Source: a phage. Taken from it: a stretch of 64,000 bases of DNA. The notes under the pieces are model-generated. The model saw only the letters and a list, made by a program, of their open reading frames with translations. It was not told where the DNA came from and searched no databases. The position numbers and the translations under genes are program-made. The stretch lies in the sequence record PX969468.1. The stretch is one strand, 5' to 3'. Below, piece after piece: positions 45 through 62,825 of the stretch. Position 1 is the first letter of the stretch; each line of letters begins with the position of its first letter.

Positions 45-797
45 ATGCATCAGGCTGATGCCCTTGCAGTTATGTTTGAAGCTGGCTATGATAATGAGAA
101 CCAGTTGATATTCTCCGGAACTGTGGAGTTTGTTGAAGACAGGTGGGAAGGTCCGACCAGAAAAACTAAGTTCATCTTTGGGGATGGTACTGAGAACATC
201 ATTAAGTGCCAAAGCACAAGATCTTATCAGAAAGGCACACCTCTGAACTCTGTGCTTAATGACCTACTGAAGGATATGAACTTGCCAAAAGGTAGGGTTG
301 TGGGTTTTGGAAACCAGACCCTGCAATACTCTATGGCTTTCTCTGGAAACACTGCAGAGAACCTCCGCAGGTTTGCAAGACTGACCAATTCAACATTTAG
401 CGTTCAGGATGGAGCTTTGTATTGGACCAAGGTTGGAAAAAGGTTCAAAGACTCTGTGTTTGAAATAAGTGCAGAGTCTGGGATGCACGGATCGCCTACC
501 CCTAAAAACCCAGAACCTGCTAAAAAACGAAAAGCTAAAGCTGCTGCCAAAGGTGGTTCGACATCTAAAAAGAAAAAGAAAAACCCGAGAGAGGATGTTG
601 GTCTTACTGTAACCACATGCCTTAACGGAGCTATCCTCCCAGAGTCCACTATTTATCTTAAAAGCAAGCAATATACAGGCTTCTATAAGGTGATCACGGT
701 GCATCATAAGGGCACCATAGAAGGCGGTGATTACACTACAGAGCTTGGCCTTGGGGAAACAGTGGGTGGAGTTGTTGACAAAACTGAGGAGGTATAA
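45..797 (+). CDS. phage structural protein (baseplate region) with Lys-rich linker; frame is open to the window start so the gene may begin upstream
   Basis: 250-aa ORF directly upstream of and abutting the spike-like gene; KKRKAKAAAKGGSTSKKKKK low-complexity linker; no stop codon between position 3 and the ATG at 45. Confidence 0.4.
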   Translation: MHQADALAVMFEAGYDNENQLIFSGTVEFVEDRWEGPTRKTKFIFGDGTENIIKCQSTRSYQKGTPLNSVLNDLLKDMNLPKGRVVGFGNQTLQYSMAFSGNTAENLRRFARLTNSTFSVQDGALYWTKVGKRFKDSVFEISAESGMHGSPTPKNPEPAKKRKAKAAAKGGSTSKKKKKNPREDVGLTVTTCLNGAILPESTIYLKSKQYTGFYKVITVHHKGTIEGGDYTTELGLGETVGGVVDKTEEV

Positions 798-1474
798 TGG
801 CAATAAATAGGAAAGATGCTGCTGTAAGATCCTTTATAGAAAAAATAATGAGGGACTACCACACCAGCATCAGGGCCAGAGTTGTCAGTGTTGACTACAG
901 TATTCCTTCTGCAGCCGTGCAGCCAATAGCTGAAACCACGTTTGATGACGGAGATGTGGAGAGATACCCTCTTATCTATGACGTTCCAATTCAGGTGATG
1001 TCTGCAAACAGCGGAAAGGCAAGGTTAACACTTCCTATTAAGGCTGGAGATGTTGTAGGATTGCAGTTTTCAGAGAGAAATGAAAACAATAACGACGATC
1101 AACAAACTCACGGCCTGTTTCCAGGGTGGGCAATCACCTCTGTTCATTCAGACTCAAACGCCTTACAGATCGATCCTGATAATGTAGAGTTATGGAATGA
1201 TAGGGTTTATTTTAAACTGACACCTTCTGGCGATTTTGAGCTTCAAACACCTGGTGGGACATTACGGTGCGACAGCAGCGGGGAGTTTTCTTTCACTAAC
1301 GGGGCTGCCAATTTGCGAGCTGCTGTGGATGGGAATATCAGAATGAATGGTGCTACAATAGACCCATCTGGTAGAATTATAACTGCTGCTGGCGTGGATT
1401 TGGATTCATTCTATGCAGAATATAAAGGTCATACCCACTCTTGCCCTGATGGCGAGACAAGTGGACCGCACTAA
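797..1474 (+). CDS. baseplate central spike protein (gpV/gp5 OB-fold-like)
   Basis: ATGA overlap with upstream gene; OB-fold-like motif IKAGDVVGLQFSERN; His/Cys-rich C-terminal tip GHTHSCPDGETSGPH resembling metal-binding spike apex. Confidence 0.45.
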   Translation: MAINRKDAAVRSFIEKIMRDYHTSIRARVVSVDYSIPSAAVQPIAETTFDDGDVERYPLIYDVPIQVMSANSGKARLTLPIKAGDVVGLQFSERNENNNDDQQTHGLFPGWAITSVHSDSNALQIDPDNVELWNDRVYFKLTPSGDFELQTPGGTLRCDSSGEFSFTNGAANLRAAVDGNIRMNGATIDPSGRIITAAGVDLDSFYAEYKGHTHSCPDGETSGPH

Positions 1475-1486
1475 TAGAGGGCTTTC

Positions 1487-2203
1487 ATGGCTACGCTTTA
1501 TAGTGATATATTGATGGACCCACAGACAGGCGATTTGGCGATAGACAAAGGTCTTGAGTTGATAGATTCAAACCAGGTAAGTCTGCGCCAGCGCTTGTGG
1601 ATGAGGTTTAATACGTGGAAGGGGAGCTGGTACTTTGACGAACTGTTTGGCTTCCCTTATATGGACTTTCTCAGTAAGAAGGTCATGAAGACTGTTCTTG
1701 ATAACAAGATTATGGAAGTGGCAAGACAAGAGCCGGATGTGCTAAACATCATAAACTTCCAGTCTACCATGGACCGAAGATCGAGAACATACCAAGCGTT
1801 CTTTGAGGTTGTTACCAAAGAGAACGAGATTGTAAGGCTGGCTTTCGTAGGTCTTGATCAGTTCACCTACCCACAACCTGATTCTGGGACAACCTCTCTC
1901 TGTGATGATGAGGGTTGGATTAAGTGGGCTAATAAACTGTACTACCTGATCAACTTCAGATTACCTAGAACCGGAGATGCTACATGGTGGAACCAGTATG
2001 CTGGTCCTGAGATGGAAAACCCGATCCCTGTAGGCTCTCTGTTGACTCAGGATAAAGATCTGCTGATGACTGAGGCAGAACAAACCATTAACCGCAATAC
2101 CTGGACACTTGCTCCAGATGAGCGCGAATACTCTGGTGTTATTGCTACCTCCAATGATGAGGCTATTGCCAACCAGTCTGGTCGTGCTATTGATGTTAAC
2201 TAA
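1487..2203 (+). CDS. putative baseplate wedge protein (gpW/gp25/Mu gp46-like)
   Basis: position after spike gene; N-terminal GDL...KG.WYFDELFGFPY pattern typical of small baseplate wedge proteins; assignment tentative. Confidence 0.3.
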   Translation: MATLYSDILMDPQTGDLAIDKGLELIDSNQVSLRQRLWMRFNTWKGSWYFDELFGFPYMDFLSKKVMKTVLDNKIMEVARQEPDVLNIINFQSTMDRRSRTYQAFFEVVTKENEIVRLAFVGLDQFTYPQPDSGTTSLCDDEGWIKWANKLYYLINFRLPRTGDATWWNQYAGPEMENPIPVGSLLTQDKDLLMTEAEQTINRNTWTLAPDEREYSGVIATSNDEAIANQSGRAIDVN

Positions 2204-2212
2204 GGAGAAATC

Positions 2213-2881
2213 ATGGCTGTAGCTTATCCTACAATACCAATTCCAGATCTTGAAGATGCAGAAACAGTCCTGAGTGATGACTTCTTGGTTGTCAACCAGA
2301 CTGATGGGACAAGAAAGGCTAAGATTGACGATGTTGTCAACGATCTTAGCATTACTAAGATAGTCTATTTCACAGATGGTGGCTATCTTAAGAGCAAGAA
2401 GGACTTTGCTTATGACCCAGAGACTAAGCGCTACTACACGTGGAACGGGGATTATCCTAAAATAATCCTCCCAGACTCCACTGTAGAGGGTGCTGGGGGT
2501 GTGTCTGCAAATGCATGGTCTGTTTTTGGTGAGCTTGCTGCAACTTCTTATGGCAGAATAGTTGATTACGGATCTATCGGCGGTCAGCTTGATATGGATC
2601 TTGAAGTTGCGGATACCTTTAAGGTTCGACTAACTTCAAATACCACAATCTCTTTTGAAAATCAAACAGAAGGTCTTGAAGGTGTGGCGAGAACTATAAC
2701 CGTATGCATTACTCAGACCTCTGGCGGCAACAAAGTCTACTGGCCTGATAATGTTAAATGGGCCTACGGAAGAGATCCTATCCTAACATTTACAGCTGGT
2801 GCAACAGATATTTTCAAGTTGGAAACCTACGACAACGGGTTAACTTGGTACGGGGCACTGATCATCGCAGGAGCTATCTAA
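2213..2881 (+). CDS. fiber-related protein sharing N-terminal anchor domain with the 5516..9316 fiber
   Basis: N-terminal ~110 aa align with N-terminus of 5516..9316 (DDFLVVNQTDGTRKAKIDDVV vs DDYLVVQQPDLTRRVKIGDVV; DFAYDPE vs DFAYFEE). Confidence 0.45.
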   Translation: MAVAYPTIPIPDLEDAETVLSDDFLVVNQTDGTRKAKIDDVVNDLSITKIVYFTDGGYLKSKKDFAYDPETKRYYTWNGDYPKIILPDSTVEGAGGVSANAWSVFGELAATSYGRIVDYGSIGGQLDMDLEVADTFKVRLTSNTTISFENQTEGLEGVARTITVCITQTSGGNKVYWPDNVKWAYGRDPILTFTAGATDIFKLETYDNGLTWYGALIIAGAI

Positions 2882-2882
2882 G

Positions 2883-5480
2883 ATGCGTATTCAACACAAC
2901 ATTGATAACGTATTTCAGATGATTGAGGGGCACAGGAAGTGCCTCGATAACAACACAGGTATTACCAACACCTCTACACAAAATAGGCTAGTAAACCCTG
3001 ATGGTCTTATAGCTGCAGGGTGGGCAGGTAATAAGATAAATAATGATTGGGCAATGCATGAGTCCCAAGCTGTGTTGATTCTGGGATACATTGAAGCATA
3101 CAGGGCATCGAAAAGCGATTTCTATCTGGATAGGGCAAAAGATGCTTGGGAAGCTTACAATAGTCATCTTCTGGGTGCATATGCTGTAGAAAGTAAAATG
3201 CAAAGATTGTCCCACTACCCTCTATCCACAGACGGGGTTCCATCACATGGTGGGTTTAAAGATGTGGTGGTGTCTTTTACCAATGGTAGAGGAAAAATCC
3301 CAACTGGATCTCCGACATGGGGGGAATACCTGGACAAGGCATTCCAAGCGTATAACGGTGTGTTAGGAAGAAACACTGTAGACTCTGATGTTTACGGTGG
3401 CACAGATGCTAACCCAGATTGGACAACATCCGGATTAAGTTGGTGGGTTGAGTGGTACATAGCATGGGATGGTAACCGCTATTGGGCTAACGGTAGCATA
3501 GCCGACAGTGGTCATACGTCTGTAGAGTTCGGCACAATCCAATTACAAGATAAGGGTGTTACAGGCAGCCACAAGGTGACCTATTGTGTAAGATTACCTC
3601 AAGAGCAGGGTGGATCGGTGATACCTGCAGGATCCCCTGTAATTGTAAATCCTATAAACGTGGTTGCAGATAATCAGGCCCCAGAGCTGGACGGGGAAGA
3701 AATGTGGTGTGACGCTTGTTATCAACTCTACACCTTGACAGGTGAGGAAAAGTATTACACCGCGTTTAAACAGTCTTACAACAAGTTGCTTAATTTCAGT
3801 GATATAAACGCCTACGACAAGCTGTTTAGAAAGACCACGTTGATTAAGGCACCGTTCACGGATGGTACTTGTCTTGTTGCAGGAACAGTTCCTGTCATGA
3901 GCAGGGACAGTGACGGGTATATCAATTTTAGAATGAACGCACGCCAGCCTTGCGAAATAATTCAAAAAGGGACTACATACAAAATAGGCAGAGATGCTGA
4001 AATTGTTATGAATTTCGGAGGAGAAGGGGTTCTGTTCCAGCCGCATTTCATCCTTAACGATGGCAACAATAACAAAAAACAGTACAGGATAGGGGTTCCT
4101 TTTGGAGGGGCAGAGGTAACAGAAGTAGTTGCCAAGGTCACTGATTTCGTAGAGGTAGTTGGTAAAGACGGTAATCCGTATCTCTTACCTAAAGAGGAAA
4201 ACATTGCCGTAAGCGGTGGTGCTAGTGTCAGTATGCAGTATGATACCGACATTTACAACCACTCTGACAACTTCACCCGTTGTAATATAGCAAGAGGCAA
4301 AGTAACTTTCAATTTTGGAAGAGAGATTTCTTTAAACTCAGTAACTTATCGATCAGATGATGAGATGGTAAGGGTCAAATTTCTTGACAAAGACAGGTGG
4401 TTATGGTATGCTGATCTATATGCCACTAATGGACAATGGATAACAGAAACTCTTACTCTAGGAGATTTCAAACTAGATCCGACACAACCTCATCACACCG
4501 AAGAAGAGATTAAACCTTTCTTTGCTAATCCTAAGGGGCTCACCTCTGTAGATTTCAGCCTAAGCGACAGACAGATAGGTAATGGCTTGTTTGATCTGTA
4601 TTGCGTCAACACACTGCCGCAATTTTATATTGCAGATAGAGATGCTTATCTAATCTGGTTTAGCGTATGGATGGCAAGCAAGACAGAATCAACCGCTAAG
4701 GTTGGCGATTGCTATGTCAGAAACTACAAGCAAGGTGCATACAGGCACACACCGGGTGTGTTCCCTGCCGGAAAGGTGATAGATAAGGAAAACTATCTCT
4801 TAGAGGAAAGGCCAAATTGGCCCTACCCTGGCATGCAATACCCAGCAGTCTACTGCATGGGTGCAGAAAACATAGATCGCCATAGATTGTCAAATACAAT
4901 AGGCTTTCTGTATGACGCTCAAGTCTGGTATAATAATACATTTAAGACAGAGGGTCCAGTTGCCTCACGTTATGTATGGCAAAGAGGTAATGAAGGGTTG
5001 ACTGGTTGGTGGGAGATGGTAGATAACTCTAAGCTCCAGTCAAGATCTTTTGTTGCTGCGTGCCGCACAATATATGAGCTCAAGAAACATAAAGAACCTG
5101 TTGATGAAAGACTATTCCTGTTCTGCCAGAAATGGGCATGGTTCCTCAACAGATTCCAGTCATCTCATTCAGGAAATCTGCCTACAGACTTTAACACCTC
5201 TGGGGGATATTCTTATCAGGACAGAGGAGACAGGATGTGGGTGGTAGGTGAATGGCTTGCAGGTTGCTGCTGGCTAGGTCTGTGCGGGTATTCAGAGACA
5301 ATACCTCAAATAGATATTGTTGTGGAAGCCTGTGTGAAGCTACTGCAAAAGCACCACTTCATTAATGGGGATAATATTTTAAACGGCTGCTGGGCAGTTT
5401 CTGACCCGGTTGGCTATCACTCTGGCGAAATCCTTCGCGGTCTAGGTCTTTATGCTCAATACCGTGGATTGTACCTTTAA
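2883..5480 (+). CDS. large tail-associated protein, possibly alpha/alpha-toroid glycosidase-like (candidate depolymerase)
   Basis: 865-aa ORF, Trp/Tyr-rich helical segments (ESQAVLILGYIEAYRASKSDFYLDRAKDAWEAY; DPVGYHSGEILRGLGLYAQY) reminiscent of six-hairpin glycosidases; hairpin plus T-run downstream at 5485-5503. Confidence 0.3.
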   Translation: MRIQHNIDNVFQMIEGHRKCLDNNTGITNTSTQNRLVNPDGLIAAGWAGNKINNDWAMHESQAVLILGYIEAYRASKSDFYLDRAKDAWEAYNSHLLGAYAVESKMQRLSHYPLSTDGVPSHGGFKDVVVSFTNGRGKIPTGSPTWGEYLDKAFQAYNGVLGRNTVDSDVYGGTDANPDWTTSGLSWWVEWYIAWDGNRYWANGSIADSGHTSVEFGTIQLQDKGVTGSHKVTYCVRLPQEQGGSVIPAGSPVIVNPINVVADNQAPELDGEEMWCDACYQLYTLTGEEKYYTAFKQSYNKLLNFSDINAYDKLFRKTTLIKAPFTDGTCLVAGTVPVMSRDSDGYINFRMNARQPCEIIQKGTTYKIGRDAEIVMNFGGEGVLFQPHFILNDGNNNKKQYRIGVPFGGAEVTEVVAKVTDFVEVVGKDGNPYLLPKEENIAVSGGASVSMQYDTDIYNHSDNFTRCNIARGKVTFNFGREISLNSVTYRSDDEMVRVKFLDKDRWLWYADLYATNGQWITETLTLGDFKLDPTQPHHTEEEIKPFFANPKGLTSVDFSLSDRQIGNGLFDLYCVNTLPQFYIADRDAYLIWFSVWMASKTESTAKVGDCYVRNYKQGAYRHTPGVFPAGKVIDKENYLLEERPNWPYPGMQYPAVYCMGAENIDRHRLSNTIGFLYDAQVWYNNTFKTEGPVASRYVWQRGNEGLTGWWEMVDNSKLQSRSFVAACRTIYELKKHKEPVDERLFLFCQKWAWFLNRFQSSHSGNLPTDFNTSGGYSYQDRGDRMWVVGEWLAGCCWLGLCGYSETIPQIDIVVEACVKLLQKHHFINGDNILNGCWAVSDPVGYHSGEILRGLGLYAQYRGLYL

Positions 5481-47712: not shown

Positions 47713-48477
47713 TTGAAATTTATCTATAAAGAACACTACCACAAAGGTGTTGTGTGGAGTCTATTTGACGGATCTGGCGGTGCAGTCATTGACTGGGCAA
47801 AAGCTGGATATCTGTGCCTGTGCTTTAACGCAGAAGGTGCTGACCACGGCAGTTATGCAGAGGTGATCACCGATCATCCAAATATTCACTATGTAGATTA
47901 TTGGATTGATCCATGGTTCCCTCAGGAAACTTTCTGCATGTACCCAGCTCCGGACTTTGTTCTTGCATTTCCTCCGTGCACGCATTTAGCGGTATCAGGT
48001 GCTGCACATTTTAAGAAAAAGCTGGCTAAGGATCCTTTGATCCAAATTAATGCTGTAAAGGATGCTCGGGTTGCGGAAGAGCTGGGAGAGATTTACGATT
48101 GCCCGTGGCATGTAGAGAATCCTGTTGGTGTTATGTCCACACTGTGGCGCAAACCTGATTACCGTTTTCATCCTTCTGACTATGGCGGGTATTTACCGGA
48201 GGATGATGTAAACCCCTGGTTTCCTGAATTTATAGCTCCACGTGATGCCTATCCAAAAATAACTTGCGGCTGGATAGGTAATGGATTTATAATCCCGGCC
48301 ACAAAACCTGTCCCGCAAATAGTTGACGCGGTTAGCGGGTATTCCATGCAACACGCCAAGCTGGGTGGAAAGAGTGCAAGAACGAAGATGATCCGAAGCC
48401 TCACACCACGTGGCTGGGCAAAAGCCGTATTCTTAGCAAACGAGCCTGTAGTAAGGAGCAGAATTAATGGGAAGTAA
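47713..48477 (+). CDS. DNA (cytosine-5)-methyltransferase-like protein
   Basis: motif I-like SLFDGSGG, motif IV-like FPPCTHLAVSG, motif VI-like HVENPVG; ORF track start 47683 lies inside the terminator hairpin, so TTG at 47713 after AGGAG is used (uncertain). Confidence 0.4.
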   Translation: MKFIYKEHYHKGVVWSLFDGSGGAVIDWAKAGYLCLCFNAEGADHGSYAEVITDHPNIHYVDYWIDPWFPQETFCMYPAPDFVLAFPPCTHLAVSGAAHFKKKLAKDPLIQINAVKDARVAEELGEIYDCPWHVENPVGVMSTLWRKPDYRFHPSDYGGYLPEDDVNPWFPEFIAPRDAYPKITCGWIGNGFIIPATKPVPQIVDAVSGYSMQHAKLGGKSARTKMIRSLTPRGWAKAVFLANEPVVRSRINGK

Positions 48478-50545
48478 ATTTATGGCATCTGCATACAACC
48501 GTTTCGGTGAGCCAAACCCGAAAGCAACTAAGTATAAAAGTGGGGGAAGTGTGAAACGAGACTATCGTGATGAAAAAGAAGTTGAAACTGTAGAGACTGT
48601 TTTAGAAAATACTAAAATTGTCCCTGTCCCACAACAAAATATCGGTCTGATGGCTGCACAATATTTTGGTGTGCGATCAGCATTGTCCCAAGAAGACGGT
48701 GTGACAGTCACTGCAACATATTTCCCATATTACGACCGCTACGGAAATCTGTCCGGTTTCAAAAAGCGTGACTGGACGATTCCTAAAGAGCAAAGGGGCC
48801 ATTTCTCCGTTGTTGGCATCGTAAAGGCCAACTCCCAGATGTTTGGTCAAAAGCTGTGTGCATCTTCCAACAACCGTAAGCAGATTAACGTTTGTGAGGG
48901 AGAAGGTGATGTTATTGCAGCATGGCAGGCTGCATATCAGATACAAGTAAAAGGGATTCTCACCAACGCTAAAGCCCCGGCAAAGGTGAAGCAGTGGGCT
49001 AAAGAGGTCCAGGACGGGATCGACGCAGTTATCAACGGTGGTGATCTGGCAGGAAAACCCTGCCTGCCTTTTGTTGGAATTAACTGTGGATGTGCAAACG
49101 CAGTAGATACTTTTGCAAACAATGAGAAGTTTATCCGTAGCTATGGAACAGTTGTGCTGGCAATGGATAACGATGCAGCTAACGAGGTAGAGAAGCAAAA
49201 ACACGTCATTAAAGGTGTTGAGGCCACGCACAATATCGCAGCATTTTTGATGGCTGATAACGTTTACCACGTAGAATACCCTGGTGAAGTAAATGACCCT
49301 GACGGTGTAAAAGATATCCGAGACATGCTGAAGGCTAAAAAGCTGGAAGATATTGTCAACATGTTCCGGCACCCTGTTAAATATGTGCCTGATGCTGTGT
49401 CGGATTTAGAAGACTTCTCTATCGAATCTTTGCGGAAAAAGACTTCCAACGGGGTAGATATCAGCGCAGAGTTCCCAAAACTGCAAAAAATGCTAAAAGG
49501 CTTGCACAAAGGGACACTTGTAATGCTTACAGGTCCATCAGGAGGCGGTAAAACAACTGTAGCTAAAAAACTGGAACACTGTATTGCAAGATACCTAATG
49601 GACCCGACATGCCAGAAGGCTGATGACTACGAAGAGGATGATCGTCTATGTATGATCCATCTTGAGGAGGACCCAGAGGAAGCAATTAACTCCTTGTATG
49701 CAAACCAGTTAGGGTTCGATGTTAAAGAGTTTGTTGAAGATCCTAGCCAGTTTTTAACTGATCAAGAACACGCAGAGATTCACCAATCATGGGCAAAAGC
49801 TGGAAAAATCAAAGTGTTCAAACATTTCGGGTCTATTCCGGTGGACGAGTTGATTACCAAGCTTAAGCAAATGGTTTGCCTGTACCATTGTCGTTATATT
49901 GTACTGGATCACCTGTCCATGGTAATTTCAGGGCTTAATGTTAAGGATGAGCGAAAAGAACTGGACATAGCTATGACCCAACTGGCTGCGTTTTGTAAGC
50001 AGTTTAATGTGTTTATCTTGGTGATCGCTCACCTCAAACGTACAGAGATTGTGCCTCCTAAAGACAAGGATGGTAACCCGTTACCTTTCTGGTATCCTGT
50101 GCGAAAAGAGAATTTGCGAGGATCGGCTGGGCTTGAACAGTTGAGTTGGGTAGTTATAGGTGTCGAGGCCGAAGAAATGGTGGATCGTTCTCGTGGACGT
50201 GTCCGTCTGGTAGGTCTTAAAAACCGTCCAGCAAAAACTTTAGGTATTGCTGACACTTTGGTTATGGACCCGCATACAGGTAAGTTCCATGATGCCAGTA
50301 ATTGGTACTGGGACAAAGAAATGCAAATGTTTACAGATGGAGAAGGTGGGGAGGTTGTTTGGAGACCTCAGGCTATGTTTGAGGATCAGGAGCATGCAGT
50401 TGTAGAAACACCTATGGGCAAGGTTGTGGCTGATAAGGTTGTAACTCCTACTGTTAAGCCTGTTGACACGCAGGAAGACCTCCAGTACGATGATCCGTCC
50501 TCTGACCCTGTTCCTGGTTTTGAAGACGATGAAACACCTTTTTAA
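48467..50545 (+). CDS. DNA primase-helicase (T7 gp4-like; Toprim plus DnaB-family helicase)
   Basis: Toprim-like CEGEGDVIAAWQ and VLAMDNDAANE; helicase Walker A LTGPSGGGKTT, Walker B YIVLDHLS, AHLKR. Confidence 0.75.
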   Translation: MGSKFMASAYNRFGEPNPKATKYKSGGSVKRDYRDEKEVETVETVLENTKIVPVPQQNIGLMAAQYFGVRSALSQEDGVTVTATYFPYYDRYGNLSGFKKRDWTIPKEQRGHFSVVGIVKANSQMFGQKLCASSNNRKQINVCEGEGDVIAAWQAAYQIQVKGILTNAKAPAKVKQWAKEVQDGIDAVINGGDLAGKPCLPFVGINCGCANAVDTFANNEKFIRSYGTVVLAMDNDAANEVEKQKHVIKGVEATHNIAAFLMADNVYHVEYPGEVNDPDGVKDIRDMLKAKKLEDIVNMFRHPVKYVPDAVSDLEDFSIESLRKKTSNGVDISAEFPKLQKMLKGLHKGTLVMLTGPSGGGKTTVAKKLEHCIARYLMDPTCQKADDYEEDDRLCMIHLEEDPEEAINSLYANQLGFDVKEFVEDPSQFLTDQEHAEIHQSWAKAGKIKVFKHFGSIPVDELITKLKQMVCLYHCRYIVLDHLSMVISGLNVKDERKELDIAMTQLAAFCKQFNVFILVIAHLKRTEIVPPKDKDGNPLPFWYPVRKENLRGSAGLEQLSWVVIGVEAEEMVDRSRGRVRLVGLKNRPAKTLGIADTLVMDPHTGKFHDASNWYWDKEMQMFTDGEGGEVVWRPQAMFEDQEHAVVETPMGKVVADKVVTPTVKPVDTQEDLQYDDPSSDPVPGFEDDETPF

Positions 50546-50603: not shown

Positions 50604-53027
50604 ATGAGTATGTATAGCTTCGATTTTGAGGCCTCTGGGCTTTTGGAAGATCCAGACCTTTATTATCACTGCGGCCTGTTTAAAGCGTTGAATAAGAACC
50701 GTTTTATGCTGTTCCTTCCTCTAAATGACCGCACACACTACTCCGAGGAGGATATAGAAAAGGCTAAGAACTTCATTCTGGCAAAGAAAACTCTTTATAA
50801 AGATTTTGAAGTTCGCATAGCAGATTTTTCAGAGTTGGAAGGTTGGCTTACAGGAAATTCTGACTGGTCACCAACAGCTTTGAACTGCCATAACTGCTAC
50901 AGTTATGACTTTATGCTGATGGAAAGATTATCTGGTATTCATTTTGATATGTTCCGTGATCCTAAATGTATGGGGACTATCAACGATCACCAGGTTAACC
51001 TGTTTGATACGTTGGCGATGAGCCGAATCTTGTGGCCTGATCGCCCTTTACCAAAAGGTTGTCCGGACTCTGTATTCAACCCGGTTACTAAGAAAATGCA
51101 GCCTGTTGGTCCTCACGGCCTTATGGCATGGGGCTACGCCCTTGGTAACCAGAAAGTTCAAATTGATGACTGGCGCGATCTTCCGTTATGGAAGTATGTG
51201 GATCGTGTATTTGAGGACGTTATCATCCAGGAGCTGCTCTGGAAAGAGCTGGTAGCGGAATCAAAAGGTGTATTCTACGGCAAATCTGACATGCAGAACT
51301 TTATGTACGATCCTGCCAAAGAGAAGCCGAAAGGGTTCAAGAAGATCACCTGGAAGAACGCATTACGTCGAGGCATGTTGCAGCACTTCCTGATGGAGCT
51401 GCAGGCCCGTCAGGGTGTATACTTCGACATAGATGGAGCTATTGCTTTACGTGACCGTTGCGATGCGTGGATGAAAGAAATCGCTGATCGTGTTGAACCA
51501 CAACTGCCTTTAAAAGAGCTGTCAATGTCTCAGCGGCCCAAGTTCCCTGAAAAGCCGTTTAACCAAGATGGGACAATCTCTAATAATGGTTGGAAATGGT
51601 TAAAAGATAAGCTTGGCTATCCTGTGGACATGAGTGCTTTAGAGTTCAAAGCCCCACCTAAGCGAGCATTTACCTCTACAGGAGATGTCAGTAAGATGGG
51701 GATAAAATGGTGTGAAGAGATGGGCTGCAAAGACCACGATAAGATGGCTGATTTCTTGAGAGGCTATATTAAGGGCACCTCCACACCACAACCTTTACCT
51801 AAAGAGCTAATGGATCAGGCAATAAGTGATCTACAGCAGAAGCGAATGCCGGACTGCAAGATACCTATGAAAATCAGCAATCAGGACGACATTAAGCGAT
51901 ACCTGATCAGTGCTGGTTGGCTTCCGACAATGTGGAGAACTAAGGATGTAACTAAAGACAGCAAGAAGAAAGCTTTACCTGATGCAGATGTTGATGCACG
52001 AGTATATGCATATATGGACGAGCTTTTGGAGTCAGAGTATTGTGACCTAATTATCAACTTCTGGAACAAAACTGATGCTAAGTTCCAGACAACCGTGCAC
52101 AAGTTCCGAAGCTTTCCTAACTCCGAAAGGATTAAAAAGGAAGTATTCGGGAAAATACGTAGAAAAGCTAGGGCACTTATTACTTCTCCGCAACTGAAAG
52201 ATACGTTTGGACACCTGTGTCCGAATCTTGAAAAATTGAACGGAGAGATGGCTAAAGATATCGTCTTATGGTTATCATTGCGAAACCGCAGATCGGTACT
52301 TGATCCAATCAAGGAGGATAAGGTTGACACTGGTCTTCTTAATCACCCACGTTTGAAGATTGACCATAAGCTTCCTGCTAAAAGCTCTGGATTAACAAAC
52401 ACTTCCAGACAGAAACACAGTATTTGTGCAAACATGCCTAAACCCTCTCCTAAAGTGGTTATGGGTAAAGAGATGCGTAGCTTGTGGGGTGTTCCTCCAG
52501 GATACTTTGAGATCGGTATCGACGGGTCCAACTTAGAGCAGCTTATCGGGGCTTGGGGTGCCTTTGAGTTCGACAACGGCCTGTATTACGATGTTGTAAG
52601 TAACGGAGACGCACACCAAAACAATGCTGAGGCATATACAAAAGTAGCAGGCAGAGAGGTGTCCCGTAACGACGGTAAACCTATCACGTATGGGGTTATG
52701 TACGGGGCACAAAAAGATAAAGTTGCAGATATGCTGGACATCTCTCCAGAGTTGGGACAAAGGGTAATCGATGCGCTTTGGGATGCCAACCCTGGTCTTA
52801 AGGGCCGTAAAGAGGATCTGGAGAAATTCTGGGAAGCAACGGGTAAGAAGTTTATCTACTCTTTTGATGGTCATGCCATCTGGACCCGATCTAAACACTC
52901 TTTACTTAATGCATACCAACAGAATGGTGGTGCATCGCTGTGTGACTTAGTTGGGATACTCATGCACCACCAAATGGTGAAGCGTGGGTGGTACGATGAA
53001 GGTGTTCGTCGTATTATTTATTACCAT
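50604..53027 (+). CDS. DNA polymerase, family A (T7 gp5-like), exon 1
   Basis: exo motif FDFEASGL...HCG; FDTLAMSRIL; GPHGLMAWGY; motif B RNDGKPITYGVMYGAQ; exon ends after His codon of motif C (IIYYH), then in-frame stop inside the intron. Confidence 0.85.
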
Positions 53028-53303
53028 AAATAACATTGTGGCTTCATAGAGTAATCTATGTCGAATAACCTCTTTAACTGCGGGAAGCCTAAACCTTATG
53101 GCAAGGTAATCCGCAACGAAGCGCTCAAAAGAGCGAACGCTCAGAGGCCATTCCGAAAGGAAGTAGACCAGCAAGTGCGGTCGAAATGGGAGGATTCCTG
53201 TGGTTGCTTATCATAGGAATATGAGATGGTCCGATCCTACGTGAAAACGTATGGCTATGCACGTAATGGTGCGGGGTAGCTTAACGACCTACCTGAACTA
53301 TTG
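53028..53303 (+). mobile_element. group I self-splicing intron (ORF-less, 276 nt) in the DNA polymerase gene
   Basis: 5' exon ends in U (ccaT) pairing with IGS gtgg at 53038-53041; intron ends with G at 53303; P/Q/R/S-like core elements in order (ctgcgggaag at about 53078; aatccgcaac at about 53108; ctcagaggcca at about 53140; gagatggtccg at about 53222); splicing restores HDE. Confidence 0.75.
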
Positions 53304-53657
53304 GATGAGTACCAACTTCAAGTGCCTGACACACCGAAGTATAAGACTGTGTACACCTTCGACACAATTGAAGAACTGGAAGCATTTAAGGCAGAACAGG
53401 AGGCCAAACTTCATGTGTTCGACGGTCATAAGTACAAAAAGGCACGCAAAGATGAGGACGGAAACGAAGTAGTTGACAGGGACGGAAACACGGTGTACGA
53501 TCCTATCCTGAACGATGACGGAAAGCTTGAACTTATCTGGAGCCCTGTGGGCGAAATGGTGGTGCATTGCTTCTGGCAAGCTTCTAAAATGATGGGCGTT
53601 CCGTTCCAGATCACAGGTGAATACTTGTGTGGTCGTAACTGGGGCGATTGTCACTAA
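53304..53657 (+). CDS. DNA polymerase, family A, exon 2
   Basis: begins DEYQLQV completing motif C as YYH-DE; C-terminus ...GRNWGDCH ends in His as T7 DNAP does; ORF track lists it as 53301..53657. Confidence 0.75.
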   Translation, partial: DEYQLQVPDTPKYKTVYTFDTIEELEAFKAEQEAKLHVFDGHKYKKARKDEDGNEVVDRDGNTVYDPILNDDGKLELIWSPVGEMVVHCFWQASKMMGVPFQITGEYLCGRNWGDCH

Positions 53658-53706
53658 TGTAAACTATCAACACACGGAAGTGTTGTTAGATAGAGAGGAG
53701 ACTTTT

Positions 53707-61858: not shown

Positions 61859-62181
61859 CAGAGATCATCGTTTCAACTGCAGGGTATGTATTCCTGACAA
61901 TCATTGCGCTGGCTATTCTGGTGGCGGTGTATGGATTTGTTATCCTGCCCATTCTTGAGACATTTAGTTTGTGTCGGTGTTGGAGAAAAGCTTACGGTCC
62001 ACAACCATGGAAGGACTGGCCCCACCTGGTGCGCTTAGCGTTCTCTTATGCTTACGATCACTCCAGCAGTGCATGCATAACCGGATACCACGCCCACAAC
62101 TGGAGCTGGGAAGGGTTGAGGAAATGGAATGTTACAAAGACCATACCTCTGCGCATGTACAAAGGAAAAAGGAGGGATTGA
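61855..62181 (+). CDS. small membrane protein
   Basis: N-terminal hydrophobic segment GYVFLTIIALAILVAVYGFVILPIL. Confidence 0.35.
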   Translation: MTEIIVSTAGYVFLTIIALAILVAVYGFVILPILETFSLCRCWRKAYGPQPWKDWPHLVRLAFSYAYDHSSSACITGYHAHNWSWEGLRKWNVTKTIPLRMYKGKRRD

Positions 62182-62825
62182 TGGGGATACCTGTTAAAGA
62201 CAGAAAAATATGTGGTCGTGGAGTAAACGATTTAAAAGACAAAGTCCCAATGTACCAATCTGTTAATGGTAAGAGAGTACCAGAACCTCACTATGCTACA
62301 TGGAAAGCATTATTCCAGAGGTGCTACGGCGATAACTCAAAGTACCATACAGGTTGTGAAGTTGTAGAAGATTGGTGGTTGTTCTCAGAATTCTGGAAAT
62401 GGATGGATACACAAGAGTGGAAAAGAGACGCTAAGAAGTTCACTCTTGACAAAGACCTGAAAATCCCCGGAAACAGAATATACTCCCCAGAAACATGTAT
62501 GTTTGTTCCACCACAAATAAACACCTTATTTGGCATAAGACAGGCAGCACGAGGGGATTTACCTTTGGGTGTGACACTTAGAAAAGATGTAAACAAGTAT
62601 CTCGTGCATTGTCATCAAGATGGAAAAATTGTTCATGGTGGTCATTTCGATGATCCGCAGATAGCACACAAGGTGTGGCAAGAAATGAAACTTGAGGAGA
62701 TGAAGCTTCAAGCTATTAAAAACAAAGATGAGATTTGGCTGTTCGCCATTAAACGTGCAATAACTATCCTTGAGAATGATTTGAAAAATAATAAGGAGAC
62801 TATAACATTGGTGAAATTTATTTAA
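62181..62825 (+). CDS. AP2-domain protein, homing-endonuclease-like architecture
   Basis: ATG at 62181 after AAAGGAGGGA (ATGA overlap); C-terminal AP2-like segment GVTLRKDVNKYLVHCHQDGKIVHGGHFDDPQIAHKVWQE; upstream part of the 61971 ORF judged non-coding. Confidence 0.45.
   Translation: MGIPVKDRKICGRGVNDLKDKVPMYQSVNGKRVPEPHYATWKALFQRCYGDNSKYHTGCEVVEDWWLFSEFWKWMDTQEWKRDAKKFTLDKDLKIPGNRIYSPETCMFVPPQINTLFGIRQAARGDLPLGVTLRKDVNKYLVHCHQDGKIVHGGHFDDPQIAHKVWQEMKLEEMKLQAIKNKDEIWLFAIKRAITILENDLKNNKETITLVKFI

Follow-up and report, generated by a model that had tools for sequence, protein, structure and literature searches.

Group I introns are removed by guanosine attack at the 5′ splice site, followed by exon ligation at the 3′ site. 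Self-splicing members of subgroup IA2, for which the criterion is a P7.1 and a P7.2 helix joined by G-U-A, interrupt conserved catalytic regions of the family A DNA polymerase genes of SPO1, SP82, Bastille and Pf-WMP3, the sources of I-HmuI, I-HmuII, I-BasI and I-PfoP3I (PMC3428280). The same paper cites a 2004 report of IA2 introns in T7-like phages at the polymerase site considered here, and describes the introns of the T7-like phages PhiI and W31 as IA2 elements with P7.1/P7.2 and an HNH ORF in P6a, located at Pol I "site 881". Nearer to the present locus, RT-PCR and Sanger sequencing have established that the homologous intron of Pectobacterium phage CB7 splices (PMC7344957), and intron boundaries in the BASEL collection were annotated by comparative genomics (PMC8594841). 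The rV5 genome paper reports introns in the terminase gene only and a polymerase of 775 aa (PMC3606486).

We analysed a window of 64,000 nt from phage record PX969468.1, read as one strand from 5′ to 3′. Positions 53028-53303 very probably form an IA2 group I intron in a Vequintavirus family A polymerase gene, from which splicing would yield a 925-aa enzyme. The region 52400-53700 matched 132 phage records, the best of which (93.6-98.5% identity) are rV5-like coliphages (Vequintavirus). About 16 GenBank records of the MG0656xx series, named "Campylobacter phage" with C. jejuni as host, share 96-98.5% identity with this region of an rV5-like coliphage, and on that similarity their organism and host labels look wrong.

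A primase/helicase gene at 48467-50545 lies upstream of the polymerase ORF, which starts at 50604. The parts of the polymerase gene are as follows, with a slash marking the junction here and below.

50604-53027, + strand: DNA polymerase exon 1, 808 codons, the last being the His of motif C (ORF list and Pfam).
53028-53303, + strand: predicted group I intron of subgroup IA2, 276 nt, with no coding content (RF00028, intron-less alleles and covariation).
53031-53033, + strand: UAA stop of the exon-1 frame, in the P1 loop (sequence and ORF list).
53303, + strand: terminal guanosine (omega G) at the 3′ splice site, with ...UUG/GAUGA conserved in all homologues.
53304-53657, + strand: DNA polymerase exon 2, 117 codons and a stop, beginning with the Asp-Glu of motif C and ending ...GDCH.

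The exon-1 frame reaches ...RRIIYYH (cgt att att tat tac cat, to 53027) and continues into aaa taa. The first-pass annotation, made from the sequence alone, had the polymerase ORF ending in IIYYH and then a stop; the frame does close there, but the ORF ends in IIYYHK, as unspliced RNA is read through one extra Lys (AAA, 53028-30) before UAA. Its account of the second frame was exact: closed by TAG at 53277-79, this frame is open from 53280 and runs from DEYQLQV at 53304 to ...NWGDCH and a stop at 53657. Joining 53027 to 53304 gives 2424 + 354 = 2778 nt, encoding 925 aa with ...IIYYHDEYQ... and an estimated mass of about 105 kDa. The nucleotide junction is predicted to read ...TATTACCAT/GATGAGTAC..., and the residues spanning it in the spliced protein are ...IIYYHDEYQLQVPDTPK. 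This product matches Pfam DNA_pol_A. Its alignment to T7 polymerase, which the first-pass annotation had proposed as a check, confirmed that the join recreates the HDE motif: across the junction, yyHDEyql falls on wvHDEiqv of T7 gp5 (solved structures), that is, on H653-D654-E655.

Comparison with uninterrupted alleles revealed the same boundaries. In V18 and CarlMeissner the polymerase gene is continuous and 2778 nt long, as predicted for the spliced gene here, and reads ...TATTACCAT/GACGAATAT... (CCAT/GAC) at the insertion site. The end codon of exon 1 coincides with the junction codon of both genomes, and exon 2 shows full or almost full identity to the C-terminus of the continuous V18 gene; excision of the intron thus restores an uninterrupted frame whose length and junction equal those of the intron-less alleles. 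Intron-bearing alleles contain 276, 328-329 or 842-843 nt at exactly the same bond, and the junction cannot slide because neither end base of the intron matches the exon base that adjoins it.

A covariance-model search with Rfam RF00028 matched 53018-53253 over model positions 1-253 of 253, scoring 64.7 bits where the gathering score is 50, with an E value of 4e-14. The match ends at P9; the last 50 nt of the intron form two further hairpins, P9.1 and P9.2, beyond the model end at 53253. A permissive Rfam scan (E<=1) of the whole 64 kb detected no second intron and no other RNA family. The structural elements are listed below.

53024-53041, + strand: P1 hairpin, CCAU (53024-27) and AA (53028-29) with UUGUGG (53036-41); invariant in 6/6 homologues.
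53034-53037, + strand: 5′ part of the guide, CAUU, pairing as P10 with exon-2 GAUG (53304-07); directly adjoins P1, with 91.7% of cells paired.
53045-53060, + strand: P2 hairpin, CAUAG with CUAUG; 3/5 pairs compensatory.
53069-53074, + strand: P3 5′ strand CCUCUU, pairing at long range with GGGAGG at 53188-53193; 100% paired, 2 compensatory pairs.
53079-53115, + strand: P4 (53079-84 with 53110-15), enclosing a short P5 arm whose register is approximate (about 53087-89 with 53100-02); Rfam alignment and covariation.
53117-53139, + strand: P6 (53117-18 with 53138-39) and P6a (53122-26 with 53131-35, AAAA loop); Rfam alignment and covariation.
53144-53150, + strand: P7 5′ strand, consisting of G53144, bulged A53145 and GGCCA (53146-50); 100% paired, 2 compensatory pairs.
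53151-53182, + strand: P7.1, UUCC-GAAA-GGAA (53151-62), then GUA (53163-65) and P7.2, GACC...GGUC (53166-82); the IA2 signature, P7.2 having a compensatory pair.
53188-53193, + strand: P3 3′ strand; covariation.
53196-53218, + strand: P8 hairpin, 9 bp; 3 compensatory pairs in the outer 5 bp.
53227-53232, + strand: P7 3′ strand UGGUCC; Rfam alignment and covariation.
53238-53294, + strand: P9 (53238-51, GAAA loop), P9.1 (53259-72) and P9.2 (53274-94), with 4, 1 and 3 compensatory pairs, respectively.

To evaluate these pairings, we scored a structure of 62 pairs in 14 helices, with P7 and P10 as pseudoknots, on a MAFFT alignment of six ORF-less homologues at 66-86% identity. Pairing was present in 98.1% of cells, versus 35-43% when the 3′ partners were slid by 1-3 columns, and compensatory changes occurred in 24 of the 62 pairs, including the P3 and P7 pseudoknot; none of 500 shuffles reached the observed pairing or covariation. 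Seven helices (P3, P7, P7.2, P8, P9, P9.1 and P9.2) were each 100% paired in the six homologues and each contained compensatory pairs. In P7, by analogy the guanosine-binding helix, the window has GGCCA with UGGUC where the family consensus is GACUA with UAGUC, a compensated change. At the level of sequence comparison, this pattern shows a structurally intact ribozyme that has been selectively maintained. The plain MFE fold of the intron is non-canonical and lacks P3 and P7, which is expected because the ribozyme is pseudoknotted; its z of -2.83 against shuffles is modest, and it was set aside as evidence since such a fold cannot represent the P3/P7 pseudoknot.

At the 5′ splice site, U53027 pairs with G53038 of the guide gtgg (53038-41) as a U.G wobble in P1. 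The first codon of exon 2 is GAT in 9/9 intron-bearing alleles and GAC in 2/2 intron-less ones, U being the base that pairs in P10. The first-pass annotation had recognised the guide-paired splice-site U and the terminal G (G53303), and the group I core elements it had placed in order were recovered by the full-length RF00028 match, the check it had suggested, and by the six-homologue covariation. Its guess of subgroup IA2 agrees with the one applicable feature, P7.1 and P7.2 lying between P7 and the P3 3′ strand and linked by G-U-A, with GUAG at this linker invariant among homologues. Its central claim, an ORF-less group I intron at H/DE, is upheld by RF00028, covariation, the intron-less alleles and the CB7 RT-PCR (PMC7344957).

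A search with the intron alone identified homologues at 66-86% identity in Vibrio phages and in other Vequintavirinae, always in the polymerase gene, and each of the diverged homologues interrupts it between ...Y-(Y/S)-H and D-E. The 276-nt form was found at ≥95% identity in about 24 records; in rV5/V5, RudolfGeigy, MaxTheCat, LL12, YP-6 and others it is 100% identical and at the same site. Roughly estimated from an evenly spaced sample of spliced-junction matches, about half or more of Vequintavirus-like records are intron-less, and a rough estimate puts the 328-329-nt or HNH-bearing forms at a few tens of records. The deposited RudolfGeigy polymerase CDS is a two-piece join, and its product, QXV84155.1, exactly equals the one derived here, whereas RefSeq rV5 has two "DNA polymerase" CDSs and small ORFs within the intron (gp222 and gp221), with no intron called. 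The novelty that the first-pass annotation had implied therefore does not stand, as the same intron and boundaries were already deposited in RudolfGeigy (QXV84155.1) and IA2 introns at this site were described in 2004, according to PMC3428280. As an IA2 intron the element is ordinary: it had been annotated before, and its polymerase site had already been described.

Longer relatives occupy the same position. FFH2, FV3, SophiaRose, CR9, phiTE and CB7 share with the window the site YYH/DE, the P1/guide and the 3′ end ...UUG/GAUGA; in CB7, whose intron contains the HNH gene CB7_50, the sequence runs IIYYH/AAGUAACAUUGUGGC...UUUUG/GAUGAA with DEYQLE after it, giving the same site and guide. HNH-bearing introns of the Vequintavirinae measure 687-843 nt and have a core homologous to that of the window at 73-94% identity, but in them a frame of ~140-175 aa annotated as HNH replaces the P6a tip, unlike the window, where P6a is only a 5-bp hairpin and holds no ORF. 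The FFH2 intron (843 nt) corresponds to the 329-nt intron of JLBYU08 with ~528 nt replacing the P6a tip, at 98-100% identity on both sides; the SophiaRose intron (842-843 nt) is 91-95% identical to that of JLBYU08 on both sides of the insert. Within this ~528-nt insert of FFH2 and SophiaRose lies an ORF of 168 aa that is annotated as an HNH endonuclease; its HNH_3 match is weak and falls short of the Pfam cutoff. At the gathering threshold, Rfam gave no match in the long HNH-bearing introns of FFH2, SophiaRose and CB7, which were placed by exon alignment and by their shared P1 and 3′ ends.

The catalytic pair of E. coli Pol I is Asp882 and Glu883, which makes site 881 the His of motif C (H881-D882-E883). 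The PhiI/W31 intron site is apparently that of the window or the adjacent codon boundary. As described in PMC3428280, PhiI and W31 (AY769989 and AY769990) resemble the window in having an IA2 intron in a T7-type family A polymerase gene, and their HNH ORF in P6a has its counterpart in the ORF-bearing relatives of the window's intron; unlike that of the window, their introns code for an endonuclease, I-TslI in the case of W31, and the hosts are podoviruses. The introns of SPO1, SP82, Bastille and Pf-WMP3 differ from the window in lying at Pol I position 674, in the fingers subdomain, and in encoding HNH nicking endonucleases, while Pf-WMP3 shares with it a stop codon right at the intron start (PMC3428280).

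Other insertions were observed in the same gene and related intron segments elsewhere. SSE121 (358-999), phiTE (396-1066) and CB7 (about 909-1621) contain a second, upstream group I intron in the polymerase gene, directly after the motif B "...GVTYG", which corresponds to "...GKPITYG" of the window, intact here; in CB7 this upstream intron contains the HNH gene CB7_52. The genomes of 241Ecol014PP (CDS 705-4103), JEP1 and YP-6 have ~969 nt more in exon 1 in one continuous frame, and a metagenome protein (P0012) has an intein-like insert at motif B, ITYA[CLPKDT...TITGN]CLYGA. Among matches to parts of the intron at 73-82%, the terminase large subunit gene of Escherichia phage Av-05 matches the 5′ half, and Pseudomonas SPA01, Vibrio 1.161.O and Pseudaeromonas KLEP7 match the 3′ portion from P8 to P9.2. 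This similarity suggests that other genes and hosts contain related introns, or intron modules that have been shuffled.

The insert encodes no protein. Its sole internal ORF, 53058-53216 (+), encodes 52 aa, overlaps the ribozyme core from P3 to P8 and has rV5 gp222 as its counterpart; it was rejected as a degraded endonuclease on account of that overlap and the lack of any Pfam match. A second ORF, 53251-53472 (+), straddles the 3′ splice site and corresponds to rV5 gp221, annotated as a hypothetical protein. Both are almost certainly not genes. An intein was also rejected, as a stop codon lies 4-6 nt into the insert. Searches by tblastn with the HNH proteins of relatives found nothing inside or beside the polymerase gene of the window, and no endonuclease gene flanks it. 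Farther away, the window ORF 61971-62825 (+), with a probable start near 62181, is 33% identical (tblastn E 1e-22) to a protein of Vibrio phage K470 annotated as HNH; Pfam matched neither protein, and the ORF may be a putative free-standing homing-endonuclease-like gene.

Because it has no endonuclease gene, the 276-nt intron cannot home alone. Relative to the HNH-bearing introns of this site, it has either lost the ORF by deletion or never been invaded by one. Recombination probably carries it from one co-infecting phage to another, and endonucleases acting in trans may assist. In rV5, RudolfGeigy and 241Ecol014PP the intron is identical at 276/276 positions, whereas in the polymerase exons these genomes depart from the window by 2.0-3.6%. 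The tract of perfect identity spanning the intron measures 393-436 nt, reaching back 55-105 nt into exon 1 and forward 12-92 nt into exon 2, and its ends differ from genome to genome. A simple Poisson calculation gives P values of 2e-4 to 8e-7 for zero differences across the tract, in phage genomes that are mosaic in general. Intron-bearing and intron-less alleles also show clustered synonymous differences beside the junction. Such an identity island is suggestive only, in generally mosaic genomes, of recent lateral transfer with co-conversion.

The perfect 393-436-nt island in backgrounds diverged by 2-6%, together with its variable tract ends, is the reason for considering a stronger reading, which we hold tentatively and think rather less likely to be right than wrong. 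The intron might be actively spreading among Vequintavirus populations without an endonuclease of its own, either trans-mobilised in co-infected cells by HNH endonucleases of sister introns or free-standing genes, or favoured as a disruptor of the target site that protects the polymerase gene. An HNH-annotated gene lies directly downstream of a polymerase gene with an ORF-less intron in 241Ecol014PP (L004 4748-5395), K470 and VpB-34 (L011 1994-2641; L012 1989-2729); Pfam NUMOD4 and HNH_3 were matched in the downstream protein of 241Ecol014PP only, the K470 protein giving no match. In collaborative homing, ORF-less introns reportedly sit beside free-standing endonuclease genes, as is said of cyanophage psbA (Zeng et al. 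2009; Bonocora and Shub 2009). The present locus is similar in that an ORF-less intron occupies a site presumably targeted by endonucleases of related elements. The arrangement in 241Ecol014PP, K470 and VpB-34 is reminiscent of it, while the window differs in having no flanking endonuclease gene.

Less probable, and in our judgement unlikely, is that the 276-nt form is a decayed remnant that has lost peripheral elements and its endonuclease gene, and that now needs a protein cofactor or splices poorly and so limits polymerase supply. Compared with those of its 328-329-nt relatives, its P5 arm is reduced by ~50 nt, its P7.1 is also shorter and its P8 is longer, and its Rfam score is the lowest of the ORF-less homologues (64.7 vs 70-91 bits). 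Decay of function is hard to reconcile, however, with core helices that are all intact and canonical and with P7 changes that are compensated; the Vibrio phage homologues are shorter still (252-254 nt), and the 276-nt form is 100% identical in ~23 independently isolated viable phage genomes. Since these genomes are viable and the polymerase is presumed essential, splicing is therefore taken to be adequate.

We infer splicing of the 276-nt intron itself in this phage from the general mechanism of group I introns, with the CB7 homologue in support. After transcription the RNA would fold so that exon-1 CCAU pairs with the guide GUGG, with the U53027.G53038 wobble at the splice site, and a free guanosine bound in P7 would attack after U53027. 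The guide CAUU would then align exon-2 GAUG as P10, allowing the freed 3′-OH of exon 1 to attack after G53303 and ligate the exons. Ligation would join His (about residue 809) to Asp (about 810), giving the 925-aa polymerase with motif C intact. Unspliced RNA would instead direct an 809-aa product without the Asp and Glu of motif C, its translation ended at the UAA in the P1 loop.

An unspliced insert, with the enzyme made up of two polypeptides that are each translated on their own, as has been reported for Aeh1 nrdA/mobE, would accommodate the two separate "DNA polymerase" CDSs of RefSeq rV5, and the CB7 paper cites the non-spliced Aeh1 precedent along with one non-spliced case in CB7 (PMC7344957). 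We consider it very improbable here. The insert is a full group I ribozyme with pairings under selection, and splicing has been demonstrated for its CB7 homologue. Exon 2 lacks both an ATG and any visible Shine-Dalgarno sequence, its frame is open for just 24 nt ahead of the junction, and its sole start-like codon is TTG at 53301, within the 3′ end of the intron. The break would also cut between His and Asp in the turn of the active-site beta-hairpin. A sequencing or assembly error, or a frameshift, that produced two ORFs has next to no chance of being the explanation, as the same 276 nt recur in ~23 independent genome records, the RF00028 E value is 4e-14, and intron-less and longer alleles differ by a clean insertion at one phosphodiester bond.

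The predicted spliced protein was also compared with known polymerases by structure and by sequence. An AlphaFold model of its C-terminal 305 aa has a mean pLDDT of 92.4, and its best structural matches are T7 gp5, followed by Klenow, Taq and Bst, in keeping with a T7-like palm/fingers region. In this model the H/D boundary forms the turn of a beta-hairpin, between strands 182-187 and 190-196 of the fragment. Homologues in the protein collection fall into three classes: those that read straight through YYHDEYQ to the C-terminal His, those that end in YYHK or YYHKQHCGF..., representing exon 1 read into the same intron, and those that begin just after the motif B "TYG". Neither the spliced protein of the window nor its exon-1 product has an exact entry in that collection, where the RudolfGeigy equivalent is present.

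Relative to T7 gp5 (704 aa), the spliced protein has 114 rather than 49 residues after the motif C Glu, in line with the roughly 65 extra residues reported by the first-pass annotation. The ~65-aa insertion, at about residues 818-885, is modelled by AlphaFold with high confidence as an ordered alpha/beta subdomain. Its length varies within the Vequintavirinae, with longer versions in some metagenomic homologues and none in distant ones. A tie between this block and the intron was rejected, as intron-less alleles have the block and distant homologues are without it regardless of intron status. From these comparisons the block is a clade-specific protein insertion, unrelated to the intron.

Collectively, the main value of the locus lies in annotation: the correct rV5-type polymerase is a single 925-aa enzyme, whereas in the records of rV5, the type phage of the genus, and of many relatives it still appears as a truncated gene accompanied by a small ORF labelled "DNA polymerase" or "hypothetical". 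The 276-nt intron opens no new question by itself and adds one more case to a known pattern, in which the group I introns of phages interrupt replication genes at their most conserved catalytic codons. Across relatives, this one polymerase gene carries a motif B intron, a motif B intein-like insert, and both ORF-less and HNH-bearing introns at motif C. The genus thus offers a convenient natural series of intron-less, ORF-less and HNH-bearing alleles for studying the persistence and movement of introns that lack an endonuclease.
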